A DNA stretch of 24,296 nt from Gemmatimonadota bacterium (GCA_003221005.1 QHTZ01000054.1:1-24296), one strand, 5' to 3'. Counted from the stretch's first letter, positions 1,340 through 18,611 are shown. Notes: a model not told the origin generated them from the sequence alone. Numbers and translations: made by a program.

Positions 1340-1394
1340 GCGCGCGGCCGGCCGGGGTGAGACGACTTGGCAACGAGCGTCGGCGAGTACACTT

Positions 1395-1409: not shown

Positions 1410-1465
1410 TGTCGCGGCACGCTCCGCCCGGCGAAGGTCAACTACCATAACAACCCCGGCGACTC

Positions 1466-3583
1466 ATGTCACGCAGATCGCTCCTCGTCCTCCCGCTCGC
1501 GGTCGTGTTCGCCGTGGTCGCGAAGCGACTCGTCCCCGGCCCACTTGCTGGCGGTGGCACCTTGCTGCCCTCCGGTTGGCGCATTCGGCCCGCCGGGCGT
1601 CAGGTGACGGTGGGGACACTGCCGCTGAACATCGTCACGCTCTCCGACGGCTCGCTGGTCGTCACCAACAACGGCAACGCGGAGAACGGGCTGATGGGAG
1701 TCGACCCCGCTACGGCGACGGTGACGTGGACGCGCCGCCTGCGCGCTGCCTGGCTGGGACTCGCGGCGAGCGGACCGTCAGGTGCCGATACCGTGTGGGC
1801 GAGCGGTGGCGGCAGCAACCGTCTGTACCGGTTCACGCGCGCCGGCGCCGACTGGCGTCCTGACACGGCGACGCTCGCCGATACCAGCGCTCAGCTGTTC
1901 GTCGGGGGCATCGCCGTGGTGCCGGGCCGAGGGCTCGTGGCGGCGGTGGGCAATCTGAGCGACAGCGTGTACCTCGTGGACGCGGGCTCGCTCGCGCGCC
2001 ACGGCGCGTTCGCCGTCGGGCATCGGCCGTACACCGTCGTCGCGGACTCGGCGCATCTCTACATCAGCAACTGGGGCGACTCGACGGCGTCCGTGATCGA
2101 TCTGTCCGACGGTCCGACCGTCCGACGGTCCATCTTCGTCGGCCCACACCCGTCCGCCCTCGCACTCAGCGGCACCGACCTGTTCGCCGCGCTCGCGGGG
2201 ACCAACGGCGTGGCGCGGGTCGATCTGGCAACCGGTCAGGTGACCGAGCAGCTCAGCGTGGCCCTCGCCCCCCGGGCACCTGTGGGCAGCGATCCCAACG
2301 CGCTCGCCCTGTCTCCCGACGGCCGGACCTTGTACGTCGCGATGGCGGGCAACAATGCGGTTGCGGTCGTGCGCGTCGCGCCACACACCCTCCGGGTCGC
2401 GGGACTGCTCCCCGCGGGGTGGTATCCGACCGCGGTCGCGACGTCCGCCAACGGGCGCACCCTCTACATCGCGAACGGTAAGGGAAATGGCTCCAAACCG
2501 AATCCCGACGGACTCTACGTCCCCAACCTCCTCACGGGCTCGGTCTCGATCGTTCCCGTCCCCGACTCCGCCGCGCTGGCCCGCTACACCCGTGAGGTGT
2601 ACGCGCTGAGTCCGTACTCCAACCCGCGGCTTCGCGCCGTCACCCGAACGGGTCGGTTCCCGCTCCCGCTCAAGCGTGTCGTCTACATCATCCGCGAAAA
2701 CCGCACGTACGACCAAGTCCTCGGGGATGTGGAGCGCGGCAACGGCGATCAGGCGCTCGCGATTTTCAACGACACCATCACACCGAACGCCCACGCGCTG
2801 GCGCGCCGCTGGGTGCTGTTCGACAACTTCTATGTGGACGGCGAGATCAGTGCGGACGGGCACGAGTGGACAGACCGGGCCTTCGCCAACGATTACAACG
2901 AGAAGACCTGGCCCCAGATCAATTCCCACCGAAGACCGTGGGACATGACGAGCGGAGAAGACGTCGTCAATCCGCGCGATGCCTATCTGTGGGACGCAGC
3001 CCGGAAGAAGGCCCTATGGGTGGTGAACTTCGGCGAATTGACCGAGTCCGGCGAGCGGGACCCCACCGCCGCCACGCGGGCGCGAACCAACATCCCAGGG
3101 CTCAAGGACATCACGTCGCCGACGTACCCCGGGTTCGTGCTCGATATCCCGGACACGACCCGCGCGCGGCTGTTCGCCGATTCGGTCGACAGCTGGGACC
3201 GCCAGGGGCGTTTCCCCGACCTGGTGTTCCTGTGGCTGCCGCGCGACCATACCAACGGGCGTCGTCCCGGCAAGGAGACGCCGCGATCCATGGTGGCGGA
3301 CAACGACCTCGCGCTGGGCCAGACCGTGGAGCGGCTGTCGAAGTCTCCGGCCTGGGCCTCGCTCGCCGTCTTCGTGCTCGAAGACGATGCCCAGAACGGC
3401 CCCGATCACGTGGACGCGCACCGCTCCGTGCTGCTTGTCGCCTCTCCCTACGCCCGGCGCGGCATCGTGGACAGCACCTTCTATACGACCAGCTCCGTGG
3501 TGCGCTCTATCGGGCTGATCCTCGGGCTCGCGCCGCTCAGCCAGTACGACGCCGCCGCAGCGCCTCTGTGGAATGCCTTCTAA
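1466..3583 (+). CDS. Bifunctional YncE/YVTN beta-propeller + alkaline-phosphatase-superfamily phosphoesterase, probably exported; C-terminus truncated by a premature stop
   Basis: N-terminal SRRSLL plus a hydrophobic stretch (possible Tat signal). Propeller repeats: LYISNWGDSTASVID, PNALALSPDGRTLYVA, GWYPTAV. Phosphoesterase motifs: IIRENRTYDQVLGD, SADGHEW, PRDHT, EDDAQNGPDHVDAHRS. Confidence 0.88.
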   Translation: MSRRSLLVLPLAVVFAVVAKRLVPGPLAGGGTLLPSGWRIRPAGRQVTVGTLPLNIVTLSDGSLVVTNNGNAENGLMGVDPATATVTWTRRLRAAWLGLAASGPSGADTVWASGGGSNRLYRFTRAGADWRPDTATLADTSAQLFVGGIAVVPGRGLVAAVGNLSDSVYLVDAGSLARHGAFAVGHRPYTVVADSAHLYISNWGDSTASVIDLSDGPTVRRSIFVGPHPSALALSGTDLFAALAGTNGVARVDLATGQVTEQLSVALAPRAPVGSDPNALALSPDGRTLYVAMAGNNAVAVVRVAPHTLRVAGLLPAGWYPTAVATSANGRTLYIANGKGNGSKPNPDGLYVPNLLTGSVSIVPVPDSAALARYTREVYALSPYSNPRLRAVTRTGRFPLPLKRVVYIIRENRTYDQVLGDVERGNGDQALAIFNDTITPNAHALARRWVLFDNFYVDGEISADGHEWTDRAFANDYNEKTWPQINSHRRPWDMTSGEDVVNPRDAYLWDAARKKALWVVNFGELTESGERDPTAATRARTNIPGLKDITSPTYPGFVLDIPDTTRARLFADSVDSWDRQGRFPDLVFLWLPRDHTNGRRPGKETPRSMVADNDLALGQTVERLSKSPAWASLAVFVLEDDAQNGPDHVDAHRSVLLVASPYARRGIVDSTFYTTSSVVRSIGLILGLAPLSQYDAAAAPLWNAF
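2104..2131 (+). repeat. 8-bp tandem repeat GTCCGAC(G/C) x3.5 inside the propeller coding region
   Basis: gtccgacg-gtccgacc-gtccgacg-gtcc, encoding part of LSDGPTVRRSI. Confidence 0.75.
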
Positions 3584-3986: not shown

Positions 3987-4002
3987 CGGCACGCCCGTTG
4001 CA
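3987..4002 (+). promoter_or_regulatory. Sigma54 (RpoN) -24/-12 promoter of the 7-gene operon
   Basis: CGGCAC-GCCCG-TTGCA versus consensus TGGCAC-N5-TTGCW: exact GG-N10-GC spacing, one mismatch, correct orientation, ending 76 bp before the ATG at 4079. Confidence 0.75.
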
Positions 4003-4078
4003 CATAGCACACGAAGTCTGACGACGTCCCCACACGCGCCCAACGCCAACTCGGGGGAAGCCGGGGCGGCGAGAACCG

Positions 4079-6691
4079 ATGAGAATCCGCCACCTGCCTG
4101 GCAATCTGCCGTCGGATGCCGCCGACACCAGCGAGCATCCAGATAGGTCCCTGGTCGTCGACGCACCGCCCACGCGGAGCGTCGGCGAGATCCCCGCCAA
4201 ACCGGCACGTCGCTCCATTCGACCCGCTCCTCGCCTCCGCGCGCGCGGCAAATTCCTGTTTGCCGGCGACGCAAAGCTCTACATCCGCGGAGTCACCTAC
4301 GGGACGTTCCGCCCGCGCGTGGACGGCAGTGAGGTTCCTGATCCCGACATCGTCGAGCAGGACTTCACCCTGATGGCCGCGAACGGGATCAACGCTATCC
4401 GGACCTACAGCGTGCCGCCGCGTTGGCTCCTCGATATCGCGGAGCGGCACGGTCTCCGCGTCATGGTCGGCTTGCCGGTGGAGCGGTACATCGGCTTTCT
4501 CGCCGATCGGAACAAGGGCTCCCCCAACATCGAACGGCTGGTGCGGGCCGGCGTGCGAGCCTGCGCTGGTCATCCGGCGGTCTTGTGCTATGCGGTCGGG
4601 AACGAAATCCCCGCATCGGTGGCGCGGTGGTTCGGTCGCGGCCGAGTCGAGCGCTATCTCGAGCGGCTGTACCGCGCGGTCAAGGACGAAGCGCGGGACA
4701 GCCTCGTGACGTACGTGAACTATCCCTCCACCGAATACCTCCACCTCGACTTCCTGGACTTCGTCTGCTACAACGTCTACCTCGAGTCGCAGCAGTGTCT
4801 CCAGGCCTACCTCGCCCGCTTGCAGACCCTCGCCGGCGACCGTCCGCTCGTCATGACCGAGCTCGGGCTCGACAGTCGGCGCAACGGCGAGGACGTCCAG
4901 GCCCGCGTACTCGACTGGCAGGTACGCAGCGCGTTCGCCGCGGGCTGTGCCGGCGCGTTCGTGTACGCGTGGACCGACGAGTGGTATCGGGCGGGCGCCG
5001 ACGTCGAGGACTGGGACTTCGGTCTCACGCGCCGGGACCGGGCCCCGAAGCTGGCCCTGGCCACTGTGCGCCAAGCGTTCGCCGAAGCGCCCTTCGCCCC
5101 CAGTGTCCAGTGGCCTCGCATCTCCGTGGTCGTCTGTACGTACAACGGATCGCGCACCATCCGGGACTGCCTCAAAGGGCTCAGCCGACTCGCCTACCCC
5201 GATTACGAGGTCATCGTCGTGGATGATGGATCCCGGGACGCGACGGCGACCATCGCACAGGAATACAGCTGCCGGCTGATCCGGACCGCCAACCGGGGCC
5301 TCGCGAACGCGCGTAACACCGGCCTGAAGGCGGCCACCGGGGAAATCGTCGCGTACATCGACGACGATGCCTACCCCGACCCCCACTGGCTCAGCTATCT
5401 CGCGGCCACGTTCATGAGCACGTCGCACGCCGGGGTGGGCGGCCCGAACCTCGCTCCACCGGGCGACGGACCGATCGCCGAGTGCGTCGCCCGCGCGCCG
5501 GGCAGGCCCGTGCATGTGCTGGTGACCGACCGCGAGGCGGAGCACGTCCCCGGGTGCAATTTCGCGTTCCGCAAGAAGAGCCTGGAAGCAGTCTGGGGCT
5601 TCGATCCACAATTCCGCACCGCCGGCGACGACGTGGACATGTGCTGGCGGCTGCAACAGCTGGGCTTCACCCTCGGGTTCCATCCCGCCGCCATGGTCTG
5701 GCACCATCATCGCAGCTCGCTGCGCGCCTACTGGAAGCAGCAGGTCGGCTACGGCCGGGCGGAGGCGCTGCTCGAGCGCAAGTGGCCCGAGAAGTACAAC
5801 GGACCCGGGCACCTGCGCTGGGTGGGCCGCATCTACGGCAGCGGGTTGGCGCCGCCCTTCGGGTCGGGTCGGTCCCGGATCTATTATGGCGTCTGGGGAC
5901 ACGCGCCGTTCCAGTCCCTGTACGAGCCCGCGCCGAGTCTGCTGGGCTTCCTGCCGCGGATGCCCGAGTGGCATCTGATGACCGCTGCCCTCGCGGGGAT
6001 GGCGGCACTGAGTGTCGCGTTTGAGCCGCTGAAGATCGCGCTGCCGCTCTTGATCGTGGCCGTGCTGCCGCCTGTTGCCCAGGCGCTCCTGAGCGCGGCC
6101 CGCGTGCCGTTCCCGGAAGCGCCGCACCGCACCGCGCAGCTCAGGCGGCGACTGCTGACGGCGGCGCTGCACTTGCTCCAGCCCATCGCTCGGCTGCGCG
6201 GGCGTCTCACGGAGGGCCTCACCCCCTGGCGCCGCCACGGCGCCGTGCGTTTGGCCCCGCTCTGGCCAGTCACCACGTCCCTGTGGAGCGAGCGTTGGGA
6301 AGCGCCGCATGAGCGCCTGCGGGAGCTCGAAACGCGGCTGCGGCTCAGCGGCGCCTGCGTGCTGCGCGGTGACGCGCACGATCGCTGGGACTTTGAGGTC
6401 CGGGGCGGCATTCTCGGCGCCGCGCGGCTGCTCATGGGGACGGAAGATCATCCAGGCGGCAAGCAGCTGATGCGGCTGCGCTGGTGGCCCGACGTCCCCG
6501 TGCGCGGGCCGTTGCTCGCCCTGGGCCTCGCGGCGCTCACCGTTGTGGCAGCGCGGGGCGGCGCCTGGAGTGCAGCCGCCGTTCTCGGGCTGGGCGTCCT
6601 CCTGCCTGTGCTGAACATCGCGGCGCAATGCATGGCCGCGATGGGCACGATCTGCCGGGCGGTCAGGCTGTTGCGCAGCGGAGTCGAGTAG
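4079..6691 (+). CDS. Fusion of a clan GH-A (GH2-like) TIM-barrel domain, a GT2 glycosyltransferase and a C-terminal membrane domain (870 aa)
   Basis: GH part: LYIRGVTYG, GINAIRTY, AVGNEIP (acid/base), LVMTELG (nucleophile), AWTDEW. GT2 part: ISVVVCTYN, VVDDGS, ARNTG, YIDDDA, GCNFAFR, GDDVDMCWR, YWKQQVGYG. Hydrophobic helices at the C-terminus. Confidence 0.9.
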   Translation: MRIRHLPGNLPSDAADTSEHPDRSLVVDAPPTRSVGEIPAKPARRSIRPAPRLRARGKFLFAGDAKLYIRGVTYGTFRPRVDGSEVPDPDIVEQDFTLMAANGINAIRTYSVPPRWLLDIAERHGLRVMVGLPVERYIGFLADRNKGSPNIERLVRAGVRACAGHPAVLCYAVGNEIPASVARWFGRGRVERYLERLYRAVKDEARDSLVTYVNYPSTEYLHLDFLDFVCYNVYLESQQCLQAYLARLQTLAGDRPLVMTELGLDSRRNGEDVQARVLDWQVRSAFAAGCAGAFVYAWTDEWYRAGADVEDWDFGLTRRDRAPKLALATVRQAFAEAPFAPSVQWPRISVVVCTYNGSRTIRDCLKGLSRLAYPDYEVIVVDDGSRDATATIAQEYSCRLIRTANRGLANARNTGLKAATGEIVAYIDDDAYPDPHWLSYLAATFMSTSHAGVGGPNLAPPGDGPIAECVARAPGRPVHVLVTDREAEHVPGCNFAFRKKSLEAVWGFDPQFRTAGDDVDMCWRLQQLGFTLGFHPAAMVWHHHRSSLRAYWKQQVGYGRAEALLERKWPEKYNGPGHLRWVGRIYGSGLAPPFGSGRSRIYYGVWGHAPFQSLYEPAPSLLGFLPRMPEWHLMTAALAGMAALSVAFEPLKIALPLLIVAVLPPVAQALLSAARVPFPEAPHRTAQLRRRLLTAALHLLQPIARLRGRLTEGLTPWRRHGAVRLAPLWPVTTSLWSERWEAPHERLRELETRLRLSGACVLRGDAHDRWDFEVRGGILGAARLLMGTEDHPGGKQLMRLRWWPDVPVRGPLLALGLAALTVVAARGGAWSAAAVLGLGVLLPVLNIAAQCMAAMGTICRAVRLLRSGVE

Positions 6692-6693
6692 TG

Positions 6694-8433
6694 ATGAGCG
6701 ACCTCGTTCTCTACCGGCGATTGCTGCGTCAGGCCCGTCCGCACTGGATCCTATTCGTTGGGCTGCTGGTGCTCGGCTTGCTCGGGAGCCTCATCGCGCT
6801 CCTGAACCCGGTGCCCTTGAAGATTGTGGTTGATTCGGTCCTCGGGACGCGCCCGCTGCCGGCGTTCTTGGCCCCGCTCCTGCCAGAGGCGGTGGCCCGC
6901 TCGCCCGCAGCCATCCTGTTCGGGGCGATCGGCATGCTCCTCGTCGTCTCGGCGCTGGGGCAGCTCCAGGGTCTCGGCGGCACGCTGCTGCGCACGTACC
7001 TCGGCGAGCGGCTGGTCCTCGATTTCCGCGCTCGCCTCGTCAACCAGGTCCAGCGGCTGTCCTTGTCCTACCACGACTCGCGCGGCACCGCCGACTCCAT
7101 CTATCGCATTCAGCAGGACGCCCAGGCGATCCAATCCCTTTTGGTCGACGGCGCCATGCCAGCCCTGTCGGCCGCGATCACGCTCAGCACGATGATCGCG
7201 GTGACCGCCCGGCTCGACGGCCACCTCGCGCTCGTGGCCCTCTGCATTTGCCCGCCGCTCGCCTTCCTGTCGCGCGCGTACCGGCCGCGTGTGCGCAAAC
7301 AAGCCCGCCAGGTAAAGAAGCTCGAGAGCTCGGCGCTCGCCGTCGTTCAGGAGACACTCGGCGCGCTCCGCGTCGTCAAGGCCTTCGGGCAAGAGGCACG
7401 GGAGAACGAGCGGTTCATGCACCGCGCGAGCGAGGGCATGACCGCGCGCCTGCGGCTCGCGCTGCTGCAGGGTCGTTATGGCGCGCTCCTGGGACTCACC
7501 ACCGCGCTCGGCACGGCTGTCGTCCTGCTCATCGGCGTGGGTCACGTCCGCTCCGGCGTCTTGAGTCTCGGCCAGCTCCTGATGGTCATGGGTTACCTCG
7601 GCCAGCTGTATCAGCCGTTGAAGACGATCAGCCAGAAGGCGGGCAGTTTCCAGACGTATCTCACCGGCGTCGAGCGGGCCTTCGCACTCTTGGACGAGCC
7701 GTGCGACGTCCCCGAGCGGCCGCACGCCCGCCCCATAGAGCGAGCGCGGGGCGCCGTGGCCTTCCGCGACGTGTCGTTCGCCTACGACGCCGCGCATACG
7801 GTCCTGCACGACATCTCGTTCGAAGCGCCGCCGGGCGCGCGCGTGGCGATCGCCGGAGCGACGGGGGCCGGCAAGACAACGTTGGTGAGTCTGCTGACGC
7901 GCTTTTACGACCCGACCGCCGGCGCCATCCTGCTCGACGGCGTGGACCTGCGCGACTACCGACTCGCCGAGCTGCGCGACCAGTTCGCGATCGTGCTCCA
8001 GGAGCCCGTGCTGTTCTCGACCAGCATCGCAGAGAACATCGCCTACGGTCGCCCCGGGGCGAGCGAGCAGGAGATCGCAGAGGCCGCCAGGGCTGCGGGT
8101 GCGCACGATTTCATCACTCGCCTGCCGCATGGCTATGCGACGCCGGTCGGAGAGCGCGGGATGCAACTCTCGGGCGGCGAGCGCCAGCGGGTTGCCCTGG
8201 CGCGGGCGTTCCTCAAGAACGCGCCGCTCCTGATCCTCGACGAGCCGACGAGCTCCGTGGATGTCAAGACCGAAGCCGCGATCCTCGAAGCCATGGACCG
8301 GCTGATGCGCGGGCGCACGGCGTTCCTGATCACCCACCGGGCGACGGCGCTCAGCACCTGCGACGCGCGGCTACGCCTGGAGCGGGGCCGCTTGGTGGAG
8401 GCCACGCCGTCGCTCGTGGCCCAGGAAGCATGA
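6694..8433 (+). CDS. ABC exporter, fused permease + ATP-binding (MsbA/NdvA-like), 579 aa
   Basis: N-terminal TM domain; Walker A GATGAGKT, Q-loop IVLQE, signature LSGGERQR, Walker B LILDE, H-loop ITHR. The start at ATG 6694 (TAGTGATG junction) is preferred over the track start at 6484, which lies inside the previous gene. Confidence 0.95.
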   Translation: MSDLVLYRRLLRQARPHWILFVGLLVLGLLGSLIALLNPVPLKIVVDSVLGTRPLPAFLAPLLPEAVARSPAAILFGAIGMLLVVSALGQLQGLGGTLLRTYLGERLVLDFRARLVNQVQRLSLSYHDSRGTADSIYRIQQDAQAIQSLLVDGAMPALSAAITLSTMIAVTARLDGHLALVALCICPPLAFLSRAYRPRVRKQARQVKKLESSALAVVQETLGALRVVKAFGQEARENERFMHRASEGMTARLRLALLQGRYGALLGLTTALGTAVVLLIGVGHVRSGVLSLGQLLMVMGYLGQLYQPLKTISQKAGSFQTYLTGVERAFALLDEPCDVPERPHARPIERARGAVAFRDVSFAYDAAHTVLHDISFEAPPGARVAIAGATGAGKTTLVSLLTRFYDPTAGAILLDGVDLRDYRLAELRDQFAIVLQEPVLFSTSIAENIAYGRPGASEQEIAEAARAAGAHDFITRLPHGYATPVGERGMQLSGGERQRVALARAFLKNAPLLILDEPTSSVDVKTEAAILEAMDRLMRGRTAFLITHRATALSTCDARLRLERGRLVEATPSLVAQEA

Positions 8434-9413
8434 GCCGCTCCTCCGCCCCCCCCGTCTTGGTGGGAAAGCTCACCTGGCACGCCGCGGTCATCGCTTGGCA
8501 GGAGCTTGCACCTGCCGCGCCCGATCCGGAGCGCATCGAGGTGCTGCGCCGCGGGAAGAAATCCACGGTGTACCGCCTCGTCGGAGCGGGACCGGACGCC
8601 ACGGCGATCATCGCCCAGCGGTCATGCATGGCCAAGGCGGGCATCGAGCGGACGGTATACGAGAAGATCCTGCCGCACCTGCCCGTCACGGCGCCGCGCT
8701 ACTATGGCGCGCGACAGGAGAGCCCGGAATTCGCGTGGCTGTTCCTTGAGGACGTGGGCGACGAACGCTACGCGGCGACCGAGCCCGCCGAGCGCGCGCT
8801 TGCCGGTCGCTGGGTCGCGCTGATGCACGCGGCGGCAGCGCGCGTCGCGACGGCGCGCCGCCTACCGGGCGGTGGGCCTCGTCGCTACCTGACGTACCTG
8901 CAGGCCAGCCGCCGGACACTCGCCGCCCACGTCGCCAATCCCGCCCTCACGCCCGAGGAGGCAGCGACGATCCACCGGATCGTGGCTGACCTCGACCGCC
9001 TCGCAGGCGGATGGGCCCGCCTGGAGCGCGCCTGCGCCGGAGTGCCGGCCACTCTCGTTCACGGCGACCTGCAACGGAAGAACACGTACCTCCGCCGCAG
9101 CCCCGACGGGCCGCAGCTGTTCGCGGTGGACTGGGAGACAGCCGGGTGGGGTGTGCCCGCCGCCGATCTGACTCGGATCGATCTTCCGACCTACTGGTCC
9201 GTCGTGCGGCCGGCGTGGCGGGACGTGGAACTGGAGGACGTGCAGCGGCTCGCCGCGGTCGGGCGCGTCTTCCTGCAGCTCGCCGCCATCCACTGGGTGA
9301 GCCCAGAGCTTGCCTATGACTCGCCGTTGTACCTGCGCCGGCCCATGTCCTGGCTCCGGGTTCTGCACCGCCGACTCGTCGAGGCCGTGGGCGAGCTGAG
9401 AGCAGTCCCGTGA
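8430..9413 (+). CDS. Aminoglycoside-phosphotransferase/choline-kinase-like protein 1 (327 aa)
   Basis: ATGA overlap with the ABC gene. Motifs WLFLEDV, LVHGDLQRKN and AVDWETAGWG. The upstream part of track ORF 7248..9413 is spurious overlap with the ABC gene. Confidence 0.85.
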   Translation: MSRSSAPPVLVGKLTWHAAVIAWQELAPAAPDPERIEVLRRGKKSTVYRLVGAGPDATAIIAQRSCMAKAGIERTVYEKILPHLPVTAPRYYGARQESPEFAWLFLEDVGDERYAATEPAERALAGRWVALMHAAAARVATARRLPGGGPRRYLTYLQASRRTLAAHVANPALTPEEAATIHRIVADLDRLAGGWARLERACAGVPATLVHGDLQRKNTYLRRSPDGPQLFAVDWETAGWGVPAADLTRIDLPTYWSVVRPAWRDVELEDVQRLAAVGRVFLQLAAIHWVSPELAYDSPLYLRRPMSWLRVLHRRLVEAVGELRAVP

Positions 9414-10462
9414 GCGAGCTCCGTGCCGCGCTGCTGCGGAGCGTCATCGACACGGTCGACCCGGACGCGAGCGAGTTGTGTCGCGCCCTGGAGAACGCCC
9501 TTTTGGACTCCGGCGCCCTCGGCTCGCCTGTCGCGATCACACGGATCAAATCCCGCGTCTATCGCCTCAGTGCCGGGTCGAACGGCCAGGCGCGCAGCTT
9601 CGTACTCAAGCGCTTCGACCCCTGGCTGGCGCGTCGCAACGAGCTTGTCGCGCGGCGCTGGCTGCCCGCGCTCGGGCTGAGCGACCGTTGCGCGCGCCTG
9701 CTTGCCACGGCGGCCGACCCGCACGGCGACTCGACCTGGCACGTATACGAAGATCTCGGAGACGGCGCGGTGGACCCCACGCGACCGGATCCCCAATCAG
9801 TGATGGCGGTCGTGTGTCTGATCGCCGAGCTCCACACGAAGGCCGCCGGCCACCCGCTGGTCCCGGAGTGTCGGCATTACTGCGGCGATCTCGGGGCGCC
9901 ATTCTTCGCCGCCAACATGCGCGATGCCCTCGCCGTCGTCGAGGCGCTGGCCCCGCCCCGGGTCCAGCCCACGCCGGAACAAAGCGCGCTGCGTGACCGC
10001 CTGCTCGTCCGGCTCCGTGGGCTGCGCGACGAAGGGCCCGAGCGGGCCCGGATGCTCCGGGAGTCGGGGCAGCCTGATACGCTGCTCCACGGCGACCTCT
10101 GGACCACGAACGCTCTCGTGACCGCGACGGGCGATCGCCTGACGGCGCGGCTCATCGACTGGGACCACGCGGCCGTCGGCCCCCCGAGCTACGACCTGTC
10201 CACCTTCCTCTACCGATTTCCCCGGCGCGAGCGCCCGGCGATTCTGGCGGCATACCGGGGGGCGGTGGCCGGCGCAACGTGGAGCCTCCCGCCGGACGCG
10301 GAGCTCGCGGTCCTGTTCGAGACGGCCGAGTACGCGCGCTACGCGAACCGCGTCATCTGGCCCGCGGCCGCGGTGATCCAGGAGAGCGCTGCCTGGGGCT
10401 GGGAGCAGCTCGCCGAGGTCGAGCGTTGGTTCGAAGCGCTGGAGCCCGCGCTCCCCGACTGA
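9410..10462 (+). CDS. Aminoglycoside-phosphotransferase/choline-kinase-like protein 2 (350 aa)
   Basis: GTGA overlap. Motifs VYRL, FVLKR, VYEDLG, LLHGDLWTTN and LIDWDHAAVGPPSYDL. Confidence 0.87.
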   Translation: MSELRAALLRSVIDTVDPDASELCRALENALLDSGALGSPVAITRIKSRVYRLSAGSNGQARSFVLKRFDPWLARRNELVARRWLPALGLSDRCARLLATAADPHGDSTWHVYEDLGDGAVDPTRPDPQSVMAVVCLIAELHTKAAGHPLVPECRHYCGDLGAPFFAANMRDALAVVEALAPPRVQPTPEQSALRDRLLVRLRGLRDEGPERARMLRESGQPDTLLHGDLWTTNALVTATGDRLTARLIDWDHAAVGPPSYDLSTFLYRFPRRERPAILAAYRGAVAGATWSLPPDAELAVLFETAEYARYANRVIWPAAAVIQESAAWGWEQLAEVERWFEALEPALPD

Positions 10463-11616
10463 TGGCCACCGTCGTCGTCTCCCCGTTCGACGTCGCGAAT
10501 TTCCCGGAAGGCGGGGGGCACTTCTGGGTCTACATGCAATACGTCCAGGGGCTGCGCCGGCTCGGGTGTGACGTCTACTGGCTGGAGCAGTTCCGCCACG
10601 GCAAGGACCGGGACCGGGACGCGCGCGCCCTGACGACGTTCTTCACGCGCATGCAGCAGTTCCAGATGAGCGGCCGGGTCCTCCTGTACACGGTGGGCCA
10701 CGGAGAGGACGGGCGCATCGACCAGGTCGGCGTCACTGCGGCGCAAGCCCAGGGCGTGCTGCGACGCGCCGACTTGGTGCTGAACTTCCACCACGCGATC
10801 GACCCTCGGGTGCTGGCGTGCGCCCGCCGCACGGCCCTGGTGGATATCGATCCCGGCCTGACCCAGACCTGGATGAGCACCGGCGCGCTGCGCGTGCCGC
10901 CTCACGACGTCTACTTCACGATCGGCGAGACCGTCGGCACGCCCGCCGCGCGCTTCCCGGACTGCGGCGTCCGTTGGGTGCCCATCCATCCGCCGATCTG
11001 CCTCGACCTCTGGCCCTACGTGCATGACGCGCGCAGCGAAGCGTTTACCACGGTCGCAGGATGGTGGTCGGGCAAGTGGATCAAGCTGCTCGAGGAAGGA
11101 AGGGAAGTTCTGTACGACAACAACAAGCGCGTAGCGTTTCTCGAGTACGCGGCGCTCCCCCAGATGACGACGCAGCCGCTCGAGCTTGCCCTGCTGCTCG
11201 CGGATGGGGACGTCGAGGACCGGTGCCTGCTCGAGCGCCACCGCTGGCGCATTCGGGACGCCCGCGAAGTCGCGAGCACTCCGGAACGATATCGGGCTTA
11301 CATCCAGGGCTCGCGTGGCGAGTGGAGCTGCGCCAAGCCGGTCTTCGTCAAGCTCCAGAACGCCTGGGTCAGCGATCGAACCGTGTGCTACCTCGCCTCG
11401 GGCAAGCCGGCGGTCGTGCAGCACACGGGGCCGAGCGCTTACCTCCCCGACGGCGAGGGGATGTTCCGGTTCTCGACGCTCGAAGCAGCGGCGGCTGCGC
11501 TGGACGCCATCAATACCGACTACGAGCGGCACTGCCGCGCCGCCCGCGACATCGCGGAGACCCACTTCGATGCAACGCGGGTTCTCAGCCGCGTCCTGAG
11601 TGAGGCGCTCCCGTGA
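10462..11616 (+). CDS. Conserved uncharacterised protein, probable GT-B fold glycosyltransferase (384 aa)
   Basis: TGATG overlap. N-terminal GG..W...QY..GLRRLGCDVYWLE; C-terminal YRAYIQGS...SDRTVCYLASGKPAVVQHTG followed by a ...AARDIAETHFD helix, typical of GT-B C-terminal domains. Confidence 0.7.
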   Translation: MATVVVSPFDVANFPEGGGHFWVYMQYVQGLRRLGCDVYWLEQFRHGKDRDRDARALTTFFTRMQQFQMSGRVLLYTVGHGEDGRIDQVGVTAAQAQGVLRRADLVLNFHHAIDPRVLACARRTALVDIDPGLTQTWMSTGALRVPPHDVYFTIGETVGTPAARFPDCGVRWVPIHPPICLDLWPYVHDARSEAFTTVAGWWSGKWIKLLEEGREVLYDNNKRVAFLEYAALPQMTTQPLELALLLADGDVEDRCLLERHRWRIRDAREVASTPERYRAYIQGSRGEWSCAKPVFVKLQNAWVSDRTVCYLASGKPAVVQHTGPSAYLPDGEGMFRFSTLEAAAAALDAINTDYERHCRAARDIAETHFDATRVLSRVLSEALP

Positions 11617-12458
11617 CCGTGCGGATCGGATTCCTGCTGCCGAGCTACTCGAGCCGGAGCACGAGTCAATGGCCGGCCGTCGTTCGGGCCCTCGCGGACG
11701 CGGGTGCGGTAGTGGACGTTGTACACCCAGTAGGGCGCGGGGCCGCGCTCGATCTGGCGCTGCTCCGCGTCGCGCACGACCTCTACGTGCTGCGCAAGCT
11801 CAGCGGCTTCGCGCTCAGTCTGGGCGGAGCGTTGCACCAGCTCGGAGCCGCGATGGTGAATCCCTATCCCGCGACGATCACGCTGCGGGACAAGATCGTC
11901 GCCTCCCGCGTGCTGCAAACGGTCGGCGTGCCCATGCCCGCCACGTACGTCGCGTCGCACCCCGAGGACCTGGCCCCGTACCTGGACGAAGGACCCCTCG
12001 TCGTGAAGCCGTACGACGGCGGCGGGGGCCATCACGTGCAGATCGTCCGCACCGCCGCCGAGCTCGCGACCGTGCGCCACGACCGGCACAAGCCGGTGTT
12101 CGCGCAGCGCTATCACGCACCTGATGGCCGCGACCGGAAGATCTACGCGATCGGTGAGCGACTGTTCGGTGTCAAAAAGGTCTTCCCGCGCCGGACCGAC
12201 GCCGAAAAGCGGGGGGAACCCTTCACGCTCACGCCCGAGCTGCGCGACATTGCGGTGCGCTGTGGCCGCGCGTTTGACATCGATCTCTACGGCGTGGACA
12301 TCGTCGAGAGCCGCGGTCGGCCCTACGTCGTGGACGTGAGCGGTATCCCCGGCTTCAAGGGCGTCCCGGACGCCGCGCCGCTGCTGGCGCGGTACCTCTA
12401 CGGGGCCGCCGAGCGGGCCGCCCGGGGAGAGGTCGCGCTCACCGGGGCCGTGTCGTGA
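11613..12458 (+). CDS. ATP-grasp fold enzyme (RimK/ITPK1-like), 281 aa
   Basis: GTGA overlap. Motifs MVNPY...RDK, GVPMPAT, PLVVKP, FAQRY, DRKIYAIG, YGVDIV and VVDVSGIPGFKGV. Confidence 0.88.
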   Translation: MTVRIGFLLPSYSSRSTSQWPAVVRALADAGAVVDVVHPVGRGAALDLALLRVAHDLYVLRKLSGFALSLGGALHQLGAAMVNPYPATITLRDKIVASRVLQTVGVPMPATYVASHPEDLAPYLDEGPLVVKPYDGGGGHHVQIVRTAAELATVRHDRHKPVFAQRYHAPDGRDRKIYAIGERLFGVKKVFPRRTDAEKRGEPFTLTPELRDIAVRCGRAFDIDLYGVDIVESRGRPYVVDVSGIPGFKGVPDAAPLLARYLYGAAERAARGEVALTGAVS

Positions 12459-15400
12459 TCATGGAGACCCGGCTGCGGCGCCTGGGCCTGCCGGCGTTCG
12501 TCGTTCTGCTCGCCAGCGTGGCGTCGCGGCCGGCCGCCGCGCAGGTCGGCACGACGACGGACATCATCACCGGTACGGTCACCGGGCCCGACAGCCAGCC
12601 CCTCGCCGGCGCGACCGTCCAGGCCACCTCCGTCGAGACGCGCGTGTCGCGCCAGCGGACCACCGACGCGCGCGGTCGGTTCACCCTCGTCTTCCCGGAC
12701 GGCGGCGGGCGCTACGAACTGACGGCGCGCTTCGTGGGAATGGCGCCGGCGCAGATCACCATCGCCCGCCAGAGCGACGAGGACCGGATCGTCGCGAGCA
12801 TCCACATGGGGCTGCTCTCGGTGGCACTCGAGCCGGTCACCGTGACCGCACGCTCGAACGCACGCAGCGATCGCTCGGGCCCCGGGTCGAGCGACCGCAG
12901 CTTCAATCCCGACCAGCTCACCCGCCTGCCGATCGACGCCTCGGACCCCGTCGCCATCGCGACGCTGCAGCCCGGCGTGCTCGGGACGGGCGGCGACTCG
13001 AGCTCCATCACAGCCAACTTCTCCGTGGCCGGACAGCGGTCCACGGCGAACAACGTCACGCTCGACGGCCTCTCCTTCGGCTCGGCCAGCGTGCCCCAGG
13101 ACGCGGTCCGTTCGATCCGCGTCGTCACGAACACCTACGACGTCGCCCGCGGCCAGTTCTCGGGCGGCCTCATCGCGTCCACCACGCGCAGCGGCACGAA
13201 CATTCCCCAGGGGTCGTTCACCTACGCCCTGCGCGACCGCTCGCTCGCCTGGGGCGAAGTCACGACGTCGGCGTTCGGCCAGGGCTCCACACAGAACCAA
13301 CTCAGCGGCGGGATCGGCGGCCCGATCGTCTCGAACAAGTTGTTCGTGTTCGGCGCGCTGCAGGGGCGCTGGCGTGGCGATGCGCTTCCCTCGCTCACGA
13401 CAGCGGACGCGGGCACGCTGGTGCGCCTGGGCGTGAGCCCCGATTCCGCCGGGCGGTTCGTCGCGCTCGCCGCCGCGAGCGGGGCACCCACGTCTGTCTC
13501 AGGACTTTCGGCCGACCGCAGCACGACGACCACCCTCGCCCTGCTCCGCCTGGACTGGAAGGCATCGGAAGCCCAGACGCTCACCCTGCGCCTCGATGGG
13601 AGCTGGGACTCGCAGGAACCCACGCGGGTCGGCACCCTCGCCGTGCCCGCCACCGGGGGGACGCGCTCCACGCGGGGCGACGGGGTGTTCGCCTCCCTCA
13701 CGTCGTACTTCAGCGGCAATTTCATCAACGAGCTGCGCGGGTACTTCGGCCGCGACCGCCGTACTGCGCGCGGGTACCTCGCGCTCCCGGCCGCACGGGT
13801 GGAGGTCGCCTCCGACCTCCCGGACAGCGGCCAGGGGGTCGCGACGCTGGCATTCGGCGGCAATCCCGGACTCCCCGAGCGGATCGATAACCAGGGTTTC
13901 GAACTCGCCGACGAGTTCTCCTGGCTCCCCGGCCGCACGGCGCATCGCCTGAAGGTCGGGCTAGACGTACTCGGGACGCGGGTCGAGGAGAATCAGACGT
14001 CGAACCAGCTCGGCACGTTCGTGTTCCCATCGCTCGCCGCGCTCGCGGCGGACAGTCCCTCCTCGTTTACGCGCACCCTCGCACCCCTCGGGCGAGCAGG
14101 GACAGCGTGGAACAGCGCGCTCTACGCGGGCGACGCCTGGCGCGCCGCTGCGGGACTGTCGCTGTCATTCGGCATCCGCGCCGAGGCCAGCCGTTTCACC
14201 GGAGCCCCCGCCTACAACCGCGCCGCAGACTCCCTCTTCGGGGTCCGGACCGACCGGATCCCCAGCGAGATACACATCTCGCCGCGAGCGGGGTTCACGT
14301 GGCAGCTCGGCGGCGTGGGCCGGACGGACGTGATCCACTCCACGTACCTGCGCGGCGGCGTCGGTGACTTCCGCAGCATTACGCCGACGTCGCTCTACGC
14401 AGCGGCCCTCAGCGCCCCCGGGACAGCCGACGCGGCGACCGAACTCGTCTGCATCGGCGCGGCCGTGCCCCGCCCCGACTGGTCGCGCTACGCCCAGGAT
14501 CCGGCCACGATCCCCTCCACGTGCGCGGACACCGCGGGCGCCGTCACCGTCACGCCCCAGCCGAGCGTGACGGCGTTCGACGCTGGCTATCGAGCCCCCG
14601 CGGCCCGGCGTGCGTCGCTTGCCCTCGTCCAGCGCTTCGCCGGGAACTATTGGGTCACGCTCGATGGCAGCTACGCGCGAGGCCTCCACCAATACGGCTT
14701 CAAGGACCTGAATCTCACGACGGTGCCGCGCTTCACCTTGTCCGACGAGGCCGGCCGCGCGGTGTACGTGCCTGCGGACTCGATCGTTCCGGCCACCGGC
14801 GCGCTCAGCCCGACCGCTTCGCGCGTCCACGCCGAGTTCGGGCAGGTGCTCGACATCGGCTCCGATCTGCAGTCGGACACGAAGCAGCTCACGCTGTCGC
14901 TCACGGGTGCGACCTCACGGGGGGCGGCGTTCCGGGTGGCGTATACGTTCATGCGGGCGACCGATCAGTCGTCGTTCTCGTGCTGTTCGGCCGCCCAAGG
15001 CTTCGCGTCGCGGACCACCGCAGGCAATCCGGACGCCCGAGAATGGGGCACGAGCAGCCTGGAGCGGCGCCACTCGTTCGTGGGCACGGCGTCCTATCCG
15101 ATCACTCGGGCGCTCGAGATCACCGCCTACGGTCGTCTAGTGTCAGGCGCGCCATTCACCCCGCTCGTGGGGTCGGACATCAACGGCGACGGCGCGCGCA
15201 ACGACCGGGCCTTCTTGTTCGATCCCGCCACCGCCGGCGACTCGGGGCTAGCGAGCGGGATGCGCGCCCTCCTCGCCGGTGGGCCGTCCGCCGTCCGTTC
15301 CTGTCTGGCGAAACAGCTCGGCCGCATCGCCGCGCGCAATTCGTGCACGGGTCCATGGCAGCCAGCCTTCGACCTGCAGGTCAATTGGCGACCCGCCTGG

Positions 15401-16042
15401 TTCGGCCTCGATCGGCGGCTCACCCTGTCGGTATTGACGGTCAATCTGCTCGGCGGCTTGGACCAGTGGCTCCACGGGGCGGCGCACCTGCACGGCTGGG
15501 GATATGGGGCGTGGCCCGACCCCGTGCTGCTGTACGTCAATGGTTTCAACCCCGCCACCAATCGCTTCCGCTACACGGTGAACGGGCGGTTCGGAAGCGT
15601 CGCGAGCTCGAGCGGTGGCATCACCCTGCCGTTCCAGCTGGCCCTGCAGGGCCGCTACGCGCTCGGGCCGGCTCGCGTCCGCCAGCGGGCGCGCGCCGCT
15701 GCTCCCACACCGGCTGTGGAGGCCCCCGCGCTCCCCGCCAACCTCGTCGCTGCCATCCTGCAGCGGCGGGACTCGCTGGGCTACACGCCCGAGCAGGTCA
15801 CCCAGCTGGCCGCTATCTCGGACTCGCTCGACGCGCGGGACCGTATCCTGGCCGACTCGATGCAAGCCATCGTCCAGCAGGCCGGCGACCGCGCCGATCC
15901 CGCCATCGTGCTCGCGCGACTCGGGCCGCTGGTGGCCGCGGCGCGCGAAAATGTGCGGCGGGCGCTCGAGCGTGCGCGTGCCGTGCTCACACCCGAGCAA
16001 TGGAGCAAACTCCCGGACGCCCTCAAGGCCTCGGGGACGTAA
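12455..16042 (+). CDS. TonB-dependent-receptor-like (Oar-type) outer-membrane protein with N-terminal carboxypeptidase-regulatory-like domain and C-terminal LTxxQ helical domain
   Basis: Signal peptide ending PAAA|Q; ITGTVTG..SQPLAGATV domain; plug motifs (LQPGV, FSVAGQR..NNVTLDG, YDVARGQFSGG...TRSGTN); amphipathic beta strands; DINGDGARND loop. Start is GTG 12455 (GTGA overlap) or ATG 12461. Confidence 0.85.
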   Translation: MIMETRLRRLGLPAFVVLLASVASRPAAAQVGTTTDIITGTVTGPDSQPLAGATVQATSVETRVSRQRTTDARGRFTLVFPDGGGRYELTARFVGMAPAQITIARQSDEDRIVASIHMGLLSVALEPVTVTARSNARSDRSGPGSSDRSFNPDQLTRLPIDASDPVAIATLQPGVLGTGGDSSSITANFSVAGQRSTANNVTLDGLSFGSASVPQDAVRSIRVVTNTYDVARGQFSGGLIASTTRSGTNIPQGSFTYALRDRSLAWGEVTTSAFGQGSTQNQLSGGIGGPIVSNKLFVFGALQGRWRGDALPSLTTADAGTLVRLGVSPDSAGRFVALAAASGAPTSVSGLSADRSTTTTLALLRLDWKASEAQTLTLRLDGSWDSQEPTRVGTLAVPATGGTRSTRGDGVFASLTSYFSGNFINELRGYFGRDRRTARGYLALPAARVEVASDLPDSGQGVATLAFGGNPGLPERIDNQGFELADEFSWLPGRTAHRLKVGLDVLGTRVEENQTSNQLGTFVFPSLAALAADSPSSFTRTLAPLGRAGTAWNSALYAGDAWRAAAGLSLSFGIRAEASRFTGAPAYNRAADSLFGVRTDRIPSEIHISPRAGFTWQLGGVGRTDVIHSTYLRGGVGDFRSITPTSLYAAALSAPGTADAATELVCIGAAVPRPDWSRYAQDPATIPSTCADTAGAVTVTPQPSVTAFDAGYRAPAARRASLALVQRFAGNYWVTLDGSYARGLHQYGFKDLNLTTVPRFTLSDEAGRAVYVPADSIVPATGALSPTASRVHAEFGQVLDIGSDLQSDTKQLTLSLTGATSRGAAFRVAYTFMRATDQSSFSCCSAAQGFASRTTAGNPDAREWGTSSLERRHSFVGTASYPITRALEITAYGRLVSGAPFTPLVGSDINGDGARNDRAFLFDPATAGDSGLASGMRALLAGGPSAVRSCLAKQLGRIAARNSCTGPWQPAFDLQVNWRPAWFGLDRRLTLSVLTVNLLGGLDQWLHGAAHLHGWGYGAWPDPVLLYVNGFNPATNRFRYTVNGRFGSVASSSGGITLPFQLALQGRYALGPARVRQRARAAAPTPAVEAPALPANLVAAILQRRDSLGYTPEQVTQLAAISDSLDARDRILADSMQAIVQQAGDRADPAIVLARLGPLVAAARENVRRALERARAVLTPEQWSKLPDALKASGT

Positions 16043-16091: not shown

Positions 16092-18611
16092 GTGACACGC
16101 CCCAACGGTCTCACTCGCGTCCTCGCGGGCGTTGGCGCCGCGTCGCTCGTGCTCACCGCGCTGGCTTACGCCCTAGGCCCGCCCGATCGGTGGCACCGCG
16201 CGGTGATCGCCGACGTCTCCTGGACGTGGTCGGCCCTCTACGCCCTGCTCTGCTGCGGGCTCGCGCTCCGCCGGTCGCGTGCGGAGGAGCGGCGCGCCTG
16301 GACCTGGATCAGCGCCGGGTGCGCCGCCTACCTCTTCGGCCAGCTGGCCTGGAACTGGGACGAGCTGTGGCGGCGTGTGCAACCGCCGTACCCCTCGCTC
16401 GCGGACGTCGGCTACCTCGCGATGTACCCGTGCCTCGGCATGGCCGTGCGCGATCTCGTCCAGCTGCAGCCGCAACGACGGCTCGAGCCCCAAGTGGCCC
16501 TCGACGCGGGGCTGGTCACGTTCACCGCCGTGGCCCTCACCTACGTCTTTCTCGTCTCTCCTATTCTGCAGACCGGCGGCGCCCCGCTCGCCGTGGCCAC
16601 GACCGTGGGGTGGGCGATCGCGAGCGTCGCGGTGCCGTGGGCGATCTTGCGACAGATGGTGCGGCGCCAGGGCTTCCCGTTGGCCCCGGCAGGGGTCGTG
16701 ACCCTCGGCCTTGTCGTCCTGTCGGTCACCAACATCGTGTACGCACCGCGCGCCTTGAGCGGCGCGTACGCGTCGGGGGGGCTGCTCGACCTTGGCTGGG
16801 ACGCCGGGCTCTTGCTGATCGGCGGCGCCGCAGCATTCGCGCCGCAGTACGGCACCACCGCCCCCGATGGCACCACGCGCGGCCTTTCGAGCGAGCGGGC
16901 GCGGACCATCGCTCTCCTGATCGCGGTGGCAGGGATCGCGGCCCTTGCCGTGGCCGGCGCGCTGCGCCCGGGAGCGAGCGCGACCACGGCTCCGTGGGTA
17001 GTCGCAGGAATCGCCATCATTGGCGTGCGCTTCGTATACGCGCTGCGCGCCGACCGCCGCTACGCCACGCTGCTCGAAGGCGAGGTCGCCGCCCAGACCC
17101 GCTCACTCATGGACTCCCTCGCCGCGACCGCGGGCGCGGAGCGGAACCTCCGCCTGGTGATGGAAGCGGTTCCCGACGCGATCGTCGTGCTGGACCGGGA
17201 CGGGCGCGCCGTGGACATGAACGCGAACGCGCGCGCCATGCTCGCGCTCCCCTCGAACGCCGCGCCCGACCGCTCGATTTTCGAGTTCCTCGATGCCGAC
17301 GCCGGCCCCACGGCGCGGCAACACCTGGACGCCGCGTTTCAGGGGGAAGTGCGCCGCTTCGAAGTGTCGTTCCGCCGGCCTGACGGCGGTCGCGGCATGA
17401 GCGCGGTTCTGTACGCCCCCGTGCGCGAGGGCTGGCGCGTGTCCAAGGTCCTGGCGCTGGTGCGGGACGTCACAGACCAGCGGCGCACGGAGTCGCAGCT
17501 GCAGCAAGCCGAAAAACTCGCCGCGATGGGTCAGCTAGTGAGCGGCGTGGCTCACGAGATCAACAACCCGGCGGCCATCATCTCCGGCTTTGCCCAGACC
17601 CTCCTGCTGGACGAGCTCAAGGCCGAGCACCGCGAGATGGCGCAAATGATCTATGATGAGGCGACCCGCATCGGCCGCATCACCCAGAACCTGCTGGCGT
17701 TCGCCCGGGCGGGCGGCCGCGAGCGAACGCTAGTCGACCTGAACGACATCCTGCGCCGCACCTTCGCCCTGCGCTCGTATCACCTGTCCACGCTGAATAT
17801 CGCGGTCGCCCTCGAGCTCGACCCGAGCGACCCCAAGATCTGGGCGAACGCCTCCGAGGTGCAGCAGATGCTGCTGAATCTCGTGATCAACGCGGAGCAG
17901 GCGCTGATGACCGTCGAGACGTCGCGCACGATCACGATCCGTTCGACCTCCACGGAGGCCGAGGTCTGCTTCGAGGTCGCGGACAACGGCCCAGGGATCG
18001 CTCCCAAGATCCGCGGACGCGTGTTCGACCCATTCTTCACGACCAAACCGGAAGGCGTAGGCACCGGCCTCGGCCTATCGATTTGTTATGGCATCGTGCG
18101 GGAGCACGGCGGCCGCATCACCGTTGAATCCGAGCTGGGCCACGGCGCGACGTTTCTGGTGGCGCTGCCCCGTGATCCTCGTGCCGAGGTCCGCGCCGCC
18201 GAGCCGAAGGCCGCGGCCGCCGACCCGAGCGGCCACCTCAGCGTCCTCGTGCTCGACGACGAAGTGGGATTGCGCAACGCGCTGCTGCGCTTCCTGACGC
18301 GACGCGGGATCGACGCGGTGGGCGTCGGCGACGGCGCCGAAGCGCTGAGCCAGCTGCAGCAGCGCGACTTCGACGTCATCGTTTCGGACGTTCGCATGCC
18401 GGGAATGAGCGGGCGCGACTTCATCGCCCATCTGCGCCGCGAGCGCCCGCAGCTGGTGGCGCGACTGATCTTCAGCACAGGCGATTCCTTCGCAGCCGAC
18501 ACCGCGGCGCTGCTTCAGGACGCCGGGGTCCCTACCGTCGCCAAGCCCTTTGACTTCGCCTCGTTGGAGCAGCTGATCCGCGATGTAGCGGCGCGCACTC
18601 GAGCCGCGTAG
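16092..18611 (+). CDS. Membrane-bound hybrid sensor histidine kinase (multi-TM, PAS, HisKA, HATPase, receiver), ~839 aa
   Basis: GTG 16092 with GAGG upstream; many hydrophobic helices; PAS ([12 protein letters not shown]); H-box GVAHEINNP; N-box NLVINA; G boxes DNGPGI, PFFTTK, GTGLGL; receiver LDDE, SDVRMPG, KPF. Confidence 0.93.

Follow-up and report, generated by a model that had tools for sequence, protein, structure and literature searches.

A conserved seven-gene operon of a Gemmatimonadota bacterium that may assemble, phosphorylate and export a glycan or glycoconjugate

Here, we describe a seven-gene operon from a Gemmatimonadota bacterium (GCA_003221005.1, QHTZ01000054.1) whose products point to the synthesis, modification and export of a glycan or glycoconjugate. 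The window, i.e. the whole stretch of DNA that was analysed, is a complete contig (C37) of 24,296 bp from a genome of 2.79 Mb in 141 contigs, with an estimated completeness of 93.9%. Its GC content is 67-74% throughout, and there is no compositional break at the cluster. The seven genes (g1 to g7) lie on the + strand between 4079 and 16042, and consecutive stop and start codons overlap or abut. They encode a fusion of a clan GH-A glycoside hydrolase (GH) with a family 2 glycosyltransferase (GT2), an ATP-binding cassette (ABC) exporter, two APH-fold kinases, a second glycosyltransferase (GT), an ATP-grasp enzyme and an outer-membrane barrel. The features are as follows, with the basis of each gene assignment, including AlphaFold2 (AF2) models, in brackets.

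3987-4002, + strand: sigma-54 type -24/-12 element, CGGCACGCCCGTTGCA, enclosing GGCACGCCCGTTGC at 3988-4001, 76 nt upstream of the g1 ATG
4079-6691, + strand: g1, 870-aa GH-A/GT2 fusion (Pfam, alignment, AF2 fold)
6694-8433, + strand: g2, 579-aa ABC exporter with fused transmembrane and nucleotide-binding domains, of the MsbA/NdvA/HlyB-like fold class (Pfam)
8430-9413, + strand: g3, 327-aa APH-fold kinase (Pfam PF01636)
9410-10462, + strand: g4, 350-aa APH-fold kinase (Pfam PF01636)
10462-11616, + strand: g5, 384-aa GT-B fold glycosyltransferase, GT4/CgeB-like (AF2 and Foldseek)
11613-12458, + strand: g6, 281-aa RimK/LysX-type ATP-grasp (Pfam PF08443)
12455-16042, + strand: g7, 1195-aa outer-membrane barrel of the TonB-dependent receptor type (Pfam, ESM Atlas)

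The junctions read TAGTGATG at 6689-6696 (g1/g2), ATGA at 8430 (g2/g3), GTGA at 9410 (g3/g4), TGATG at 10460 (g4/g5), GTGA at 11613 (g5/g6) and GTGA at 12455 (g6/g7). An earlier note on this DNA, made from the sequence alone, had quoted these overlaps between seven same-strand genes, and each of them is where that note placed it. The gene identities that it proposed are likewise borne out by the domain calls or, for the GT-B assignment of g5, by the fold. The overlaps of -1, -4 and -8 are kept in the related loci L004, L005, L008 and L018, which share the gene order of the window, and are largely kept in L002 (where one junction is broken), L006, L020 and L037.

To place the operon in a wider setting, species-representative genomes were scanned with g5, which gave 79 related loci. 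Families of open reading frames (ORFs) were then clustered over these loci and the window, making 80 sources in all, many of which are cut by contig ends. The families occur as follows.

g5 family: 80 of 80 sources
ABC family: 64 of 80
YdjC/ChbG deacetylase: 60 of 80
APH family: 58 of 80
g1 family: 55 of 80
ATP-grasp family: 28 of 80
DUF5916+CBM9 outer-membrane protein: 26 of 80
g7 family: 8 of 80

This gene-neighbourhood analysis, which had been suggested as a check on the original reading, finds the core genes (the GH-A/GT2 fusion, the ABC exporter, the kinases and the GT-B enzyme) together and in conserved order in dozens of loci from at least eight phyla. We group the gene orders into four recurring layouts. 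Type A, the layout of the window, runs g1-ABC-APH-APH-g5-grasp-g7 and is also found in L002, L004, L005, L008 and L018, while type B runs g1-ABC-APH-APH-YdjC-g5-DUF5916. Type C has a third kinase, with a weak match to the Kdo/WaaP family (E 7.4e-4), and a second g5 paralogue. The cyanobacterial layout comprises g1, two ABC half-transporters, YdjC and four g5-family genes, with no kinases; one of its three additional g5-family genes has a Glyco_trans_1_2 match, and in the Nostoc locus L010 (132-21238) four GT2 genes and an HlyD-type protein come after the core. It is carried by terrestrial Nostoc and Nodosilinea (L010 and nine other loci). The DUF5916+CBM9 protein, of about 910-970 aa, is encoded after g5 (e.g. 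L024 10939-13839 and L040 16386-19127), and in other clades the outer-membrane partner bears a carbohydrate-binding domain, CBM9; no paper mentioning DUF5916 was found in the literature searched. In some relatives a gene for a patatin-like phospholipase lies upstream of the cluster. YdjC is absent from the window and from the whole genome, which is about 94% complete; since 60 of the 80 sources have it, the window holds a reduced variant.

The closest related loci come from Gemmatimonadota bins, and the carriers also include Acidobacteriota, Actinomycetota, Chloroflexota, Planctomycetota, Myxococcota, candidate phyla and terrestrial Nostoc. The distribution is patchy, with g5 found in none of six genomes of the same genus (71-100% complete) and, of the 40 nearest relatives, in one. 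Across the phylum, evenly sampled, 19 of 301 genomes (G000 included) have a match at E<=1e-40, 11 of them at an identity of at least 60%. The g5 tree requires 15 changes of phylum label, where the least possible number is 8 and shuffles average 32.8, which indicates largely clade-wise inheritance with some switches. Several cross-phylum neighbours of g5 in this tree are on short contigs of soil bins that may be mis-binned, and we claim no donor. The breadth over phyla is nevertheless real, given the long contigs on which the cluster is found (Nostoc isolates, Actinomycetota 497 kb, Solirubrobacterales 183 kb and Acidobacteriota 456 kb). No match to g5 was found by tblastn among 72,556 plasmids. 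At least half of the sampled words of the window are present in 20 soil-metagenome DNA runs from 15 studies.

The promoter element reads GGCAC-N5-TTGC and has the canonical GG-N10-GC spacing, in agreement with the near-consensus -24/-12 promoter claimed in the earlier note. It is the sole + strand match in the window. At least one match to GGCAYN5TTGC occurs in 29 of 100 shuffles of the window, so the element taken alone is not beyond chance. Its position is conserved nonetheless. Of the related loci, 41 offer 250 nt or more upstream of the g1 homologue; in these, alignment of the upstream regions together with a scan found the same element by that gene in 11. In ten cases it precedes the estimated g1 start by 34-207 nt, and one case, at -22, is ambiguous. 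The conserved element is mostly the sole match on both strands in about 21 kb, against a background of 0.011 per kb, and is conserved within the window's own clade. In the genome, rpoN (215.8 bits) is present together with nine strong enhancer-binding proteins (Sigma54_activat). On this sequence evidence, the operon is probably read from a sigma-54 promoter. Matches to other signals are uninformative at 70% GC: three to Rho-independent terminators and none to sigma-70 promoters, at or below the expectation from shuffles. No Rfam family reached the gathering score and no tRNA was found in the window when it was checked for riboswitches and leader RNAs. In the 495-nt gap upstream of the operon the only ORFs are of low complexity, 20-58 aa long, and overlap larger frames that are spurious, and a reading of the locus as a cluster for a ribosomally made peptide that is modified after translation (RiPP) was rejected because the gap has no credible small ORF for a precursor.

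The first gene, g1, matches the Pfam families Glyco_hydro_2_C, a TIM barrel (E 1.2e-10), and Glycos_transf_2 (E 2.5e-33). Its layout is a clan GH-A (beta/alpha)8 barrel at about residues 50-340, a GT2 domain at 346-650 and, at the C-terminus, a helical membrane anchor. Over 16 homologues, Nostoc among them, N175-E176 (the acid/base pair) and E261 (the nucleophile) of the barrel are invariant, as are the GT2 aspartates D383, D428, D430 and D517-D520. The GT2 motifs are DDGS, DDD, GDDVD and QQxxYG; the sequence at 554-558 is QQVGY, and Q554, Q555, Y558 and G559 are invariant in the same homologues. When residues 1-344 are compared with Pfam at E<=10, the matches are GH2_C (5.6e-12) and GH72 (4e-4). 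GH17, which belongs to the same clan, GH-A, has no Pfam match in this region at that threshold and is not among the top Foldseek and VIA-align matches listed. The AF2 model has a pLDDT of 66 over the whole protein and of 75-90 in its two domains. By Foldseek and VIA-align the barrel resembles GH2 beta-glucuronidase/galacturonidase (Z 29.6), GH157 (Z 29.5), GH5 mannanases and GH72 Gas/Gel enzymes (Z ~26). Since these matches are spread over GH2, GH157, GH5 and GH72, the barrel is that of a retaining GH-A enzyme of generic type, which cannot be assigned to a family.

The topology of g1 bears directly on how it could work. The Kyte-Doolittle hydropathy, in a 19-residue window, reaches 1.1 in no segment before residue 653, and the N-terminus is polar. 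There are only two strongly hydrophobic helices, at 653-671 and 831-849, both C-terminal. As no membrane segment separates the GH and GT2 domains, both catalytic domains would lie on the same, cytoplasmic, side, and with just two such helices a BcsA-like channel would not be possible. The nearest NCBIfam model is MftF (TIGR03965), with 171 bits over residues 319-573. MftF, as outlined in PMC7491314, adds a short cellulose-like beta-glucan chain to a small-molecule cofactor, and so offers a GT2 that builds a short beta-glucan on a small molecule as the top-scoring named model for this domain. The two differ in that g1 does not reach the equivalog cut-off of 280 bits, has no mft genes nearby and carries an added GH-A barrel and a membrane anchor. 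A search for standalone GH-A proteins returned mostly fragments of the same fusion family, with a few short forms on long contigs, and split forms of the fusion may exist.

The exporter g2 has the Pfam domains ABC_membrane and ABC_tran. Against NCBIfam it scores 394.8 bits for MsbA (TIGR02203, cut-off 602), 357 for the glucan exporter PRK13657 (cut-off 733) and 297.7 for TIGR01192 (cut-off 585.4); overall, its scores for the MsbA, cyanophycin-associated, NdvA and HlyB models are 40-65% of the cut-offs. By these scores, g2 is not an equivalog of NdvA, ChvA or MsbA.

Both kinases match PF01636 (APH, cut-off 23.2 bits): g3 with E 2.8e-11 and 44.1 bits, once its ORF start is set at 8430, and g4 with E 1.8e-13 and 51.2 bits. 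In alignments of homologues, HGDxxxxN and DWE are invariant in g3, and K67, HGDLWxxN and DWD in g4. The beta3 lysine that anchors ATP (position 63 of g3) is replaced by Gln (IIAQR) in 6 of 16 homologues, namely those of the window, L020, L002, L018, L004 and L006, and is kept (VIAKR) in the other 10; the catalytic loop is intact throughout. The nearest relatives of g3 and g4 in the PDB are weak and cover the catalytic loop only; they are capreomycin, viomycin and macrolide phosphotransferases and the kinase domain of ACAD11, and for g4 the three antibiotic phosphotransferases have E 1e-3 to 5e-2. A 1265-aa protein in which ABC, APH and APH are joined (P0200) was considered as a 'Rosetta-stone' fusion and rejected. 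It is 98-99% identical to the g2, g3 and g4 proteins, and because its ABC match stops at residue 558 of 579 and its g3 match at 301 of 327, short of the protein ends, we read it as frameshifted in a near-identical strain, probably through an assembly error.

No Pfam family matches g5 at E<=10, and it has no NCBIfam match. Its AF2 model has a pLDDT of 92.4 and a pTM of 0.91, and among at least 500 Foldseek matches at E<=0.001 the top ones are GT4 enzymes (prob 1.0, TM 0.59-0.66): tll1591, BGluT, MshA, PimA, BshA, GlgM and SPS. By its predicted fold, then, g5 is a GT-B/GT4-like glycosyltransferase. It has more than 4772 homologues in public data, nearly all labelled 'hypothetical'. PF13524 (CgeB-like, GT-B) is precomputed on one of 120 g5 homologues among the matches listed, and on 10% of one Atlas cluster.

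The ATP-grasp protein g6 matches PF08443 (RimK ATP-grasp) with E 2e-12 and 47.6 bits against a cut-off of 21, and falls below the NCBIfam cut-offs for rimK_fam TIGR00768 (67 against 143.4) and LysX (75.2 against 275.6). In a profile comparison with the PDB its relatives are ArgX/LysX (1.7e-18), RimK (1.8e-17) and the inositol-trisphosphate 5/6-kinase, also an ATP-grasp (8.5e-14). In g7, a signal-like N-terminal sequence is followed by CarboxypepD_reg, an OMP_b-brl_4 barrel (E 2.2e-49, 169 bits against a cut-off of 30) and a C-terminal LTXXQ-like extension. It falls in ESM Atlas clusters named TonB-dependent receptor family (score 0.99), some with PF00593. No Plug domain was found in residues 1-416 at E<=1, nor any sequence relative in the PDB at E<=0.01. 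The LTXXQ-motif (Spy/CpxP-like) stretch, at about residues 1106-1186 (window 15770-16039, E 2.1e-5), is an unusual appendage for an outer-membrane barrel; PF07813 is present on 14% of the members of one Atlas cluster related to g7.

These genes form a real, conserved operon, and the general inference of the earlier note, that it serves to make a glycan or glycoconjugate, is plausible. As to its function, we give about even odds to an accessory operon, with sigma-54 as the probable means of its expression, whose products build an oligosaccharide or small glycoconjugate, phosphorylate it and export it. From the domains, catalytic residues, topology, synteny, promoter element and gene overlaps we infer the chemical steps, their order and the nature of the product as follows. 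As g1 lacks a signal peptide and its first membrane segment comes no earlier than residue 653, and as g3 to g6 lack both, all the chemistry would be cytoplasmic and a separate exporter would be needed. Anchored in the inner membrane, g1 would extend an acceptor at the cytoplasmic face with beta-linked sugars through its GT2 domain, and the fused retaining GH-A barrel could trim, release or transglycosylate that beta-linked chain. The GT-B enzyme g5 would add another sugar; many retaining GT4 enzymes act on small or phosphorylated acceptors. The APH-fold kinases g3 and g4 may phosphorylate the product, or else its acceptor or precursor sugar, and g6 might attach an amino acid to a carboxylate or add a third phosphate. 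The MsbA/NdvA-class exporter g2 would carry the product across the inner membrane, and the g7 barrel would interact with it at the outer membrane, in either direction of transport. The receptor class of g7 and the CBM9 partner found elsewhere fit the recognition of a glycan at the outer membrane, without giving the direction, and the recurrence of the YdjC deacetylase is a hint that the chemistry of the family involves N-acetylhexosamine.

Several points weigh against this account. The sigma-54 element was not found upstream of g1 in 30 of the 41 loci scanned, including all 10 cyanobacterial loci and the type-B Gemmatimonadales clade, and neither the window nor any of the 79 loci contains a gene for an enhancer-binding protein. 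There are no genes for nucleotide sugars or lipid carriers in the window to point to a donor and an acceptor. In the window's clade g3 lacks the canonical ATP-anchoring lysine and may be a pseudokinase or bind nucleotide atypically. By its family assignment g7 is of an uptake-receptor class and not of any known class of glycan export porin, and its family is restricted to the 8 sources given above. As most relatives have YdjC and the window does not, its product may differ from the norm of the family. Finally, the runs listed for the window included no RNA run.

The earlier note had seen here a self-contained system for the synthesis, modification and export of an oligosaccharide or glycosylated small molecule. 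A co-inherited core unit, kept in order in many genomes and devoted to a glycan or glycoconjugate, is upheld; 'self-contained' is doubtful in view of the missing YdjC, and so is the role of g7 as an export barrel, given its receptor type. The note had also drawn a comparison with the cyclic beta-glucan system of NdvB and NdvA, on which g1 would make a beta-glucan, its GH domain would cyclise it, g2 would export it like NdvA/ChvA, and the kinases and the ATP-grasp enzyme would add substituents. To this we give little credence. PMC10237404 describes NdvB as a protein with a signal peptide and a GH17 domain in the periplasm, followed by a transmembrane region and a BcsA-like GT2 that carries Q(Q/R)xRW; g1 resembles it in fusing an N-terminal GH-A-clan TIM barrel to a GT2 in one membrane protein, in that order and at a size of about 870 aa. 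Moreover, beta-1,3-glucan enzymes of GH72 and GH157/158 are among the structural matches of g1, and g2 is an ABC exporter of the same fold class as NdvA/ChvA that gains 357 bits with the glucan exporter model. However, g1 has neither a signal peptide nor a membrane segment between its domains, so that its barrel is on the side of the GT2, i.e. cytoplasmic, whereas that of NdvB is described as periplasmic, and it has QQVGY in place of the Q(Q/R)xRW given for NdvB (PMC10237404). The Pfam matches of the barrel are to GH2_C and GH72 rather than GH17, the two C-terminal helices are too few for a BcsA-like channel, and g2 falls far under the cut-offs of the NdvA and ChvA models, at less than half for NdvA. 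The ndv loci have no counterparts of the kinases, the GT-B enzyme or the ATP-grasp, and the frequent YdjC of relatives points to N-acetylhexosamine over plain glucan. While g1 may work loosely like NdvB, by analogy, as a synthase with a chain-editing hydrolase, its sequence features indicate that it is not a member of the NdvB family.

Three other explanations were weighed. It is unlikely, though worth stating, that a phosphorylated glycoside of low molecular weight is made in the cytoplasm, exported by the ABC protein and then retaken or sensed through g7, or that phosphorylation serves as self-protection for a bioactive glycoside. The TonB-dependent receptor type of g7, translationally coupled to g6, would suit such recapture. 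The plan is that of siderophore and other 'public good' clusters, siderophore clusters classically having an MsbA-like exporter beside a TonB-dependent receptor. The nearest folds to g5 include small-acceptor GT4 enzymes (BGluT, MshA, BshA, GlgM and SPS), the nearest solved kinases phosphorylate small antibiotics, and the nearest named GT2, MftF, is described as glycosylating a small cofactor (PMC7491314). All of these similarities, however, are weak and generic; the operon contains no enzyme that would form an aglycone, g7 has no detected Plug domain, and it occurs in only 8 of the 80 sources, 26 having the DUF5916+CBM9 protein instead. A lipid-anchored oligosaccharide similar to a lipooligosaccharide core, in which the GT2 and GT4-like enzymes extend a membrane lipid, WaaP/WaaY-like kinases phosphorylate it and an MsbA-like flippase moves it outward, seems to us more doubtful still. 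In core assembly these parts are played by WaaG (a GT4), the WaaP and WaaY kinases and MsbA, so the logic is shared: glycosyl transfer at the cytoplasmic face, sugar phosphorylation by protein-kinase-like enzymes and an MsbA-class exporter. MsbA is among the best ABC models for g2 (394.8 bits), g1 is membrane-anchored, the third kinase of type C has its weak Kdo/WaaP match, and some relatives have the upstream patatin-like phospholipase gene. Against this, the MsbA score is well under its cut-off and no protein of the window reaches the cut-off of any lipopolysaccharide family; genes for acyltransferases and lipid carriers are missing from the window; and the cluster is also found in cyanobacteria and in bins of Actinomycetota and Chloroflexota, the last two being mostly single-membrane phyla.

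The remaining alternative reverses the direction: g7 would import an environmental glycan, the exporter-fold ABC protein would act as an importer, the GH-A barrel would cleave the glycan and the APH kinases would phosphorylate the released sugars. We find this scarcely credible, even though g7 is of a receptor class, both catalytic glutamates of the barrel are kept and the YdjC/ChbG deacetylase of relatives is known, from the source names, in chitobiose catabolism; APH-fold anomeric sugar kinases (e.g. NahK and AmgK) and exporter-fold ABC importers also exist. The two glycosyltransferase modules are the most conserved members (GT-B g5 in 80 and GT2 g1 in 55 of the 80 sources), there is no periplasmic binding protein or downstream catabolic enzyme, and the cyanobacterial variant has seven additional genes of glycosyltransferase type and no kinase. 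Returning to assembly and export, a further parallel is the Nod-factor pathway, with its NodC GT2, NodB deacetylase, decorating enzymes and NodIJ exporter. The layout of the relatives follows a similar logic, in that a GT2 oligosaccharide synthase, a sugar deacetylase and ATP-dependent decoration are combined with a dedicated ABC exporter. The parts are nevertheless non-homologous: YdjC is not NodB/CE4, the ABC protein is of another class, the NodC model gives 29.8 bits, and the window has no deacetylase. The lipooligosaccharide-core and Nod-factor parallels are analogies of logic only.

Just upstream of the operon, at 1466-3583 (+), a 705-aa protein has a signal-like N-terminus, beta-propeller repeats and a C-terminal phosphoesterase stretch of the PLC/acid-phosphatase family. 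A copy that is 77% identical stands in the same place in L022, while for 77 of the other 79 loci tblastn (E<=1e-10 over at least 40% of the length) found none. Downstream, 148 nt after g7, a PAS-HisKA-HATPase-receiver hybrid histidine kinase is encoded at 16190-18611 (+), with no obvious tie to the sigma-54 element; weak homologues follow the cluster in L018 (38%) and L022 (44%) only. Within its gene lies a second, weaker GG-N10-GC match, GGGTACGGCGGTTGCA, at 16393 (-), which is probably due to chance. At the ends of the contig are the N-terminal part of a GH38 alpha-mannosidase at 2-1441 (-), running off the contig start, and a DUF11-repeat protein at 22266-24290 (-).

In kind, the cluster falls among glycan biosynthesis and export clusters. 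The statement of the earlier note that it matches no recognised pathway holds: no protein reaches an NCBIfam equivalog cut-off, the names given in the sources are generic, and no paper describing the cluster was found in a literature search, which left out most subscription journals. We see a slim chance that the core, together with the usual YdjC and a glycan-recognising outer-membrane protein, is an unrecognised pathway, widespread in soil bacteria, that makes a new class of secreted phosphorylated oligosaccharide or glycoside. In such a pathway, sugar-1-phosphates or phospho-acceptors made by the APH kinases might stand in for what nucleotide-sugar genes usually provide, and the product, once released, might be taken back or sensed by way of a TonB-dependent receptor, as a diffusible glycan signal or public good and not as a capsule.

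Should the cluster prove to be another exopolysaccharide variant, the value of these results would lie mainly in annotation. The cytoplasmic glycoside-hydrolase/GT2 fusion is in itself an enzymological puzzle. If it is true that the cluster makes a distinct phosphorylated glycan or glycoside, one more biosynthetic route would be gained and probably a new molecule, either secreted or on the cell surface. Its owners would be soil bacteria that are abundant but poorly cultured, in which it may have roles in stress or desiccation tolerance, aggregation or signalling.

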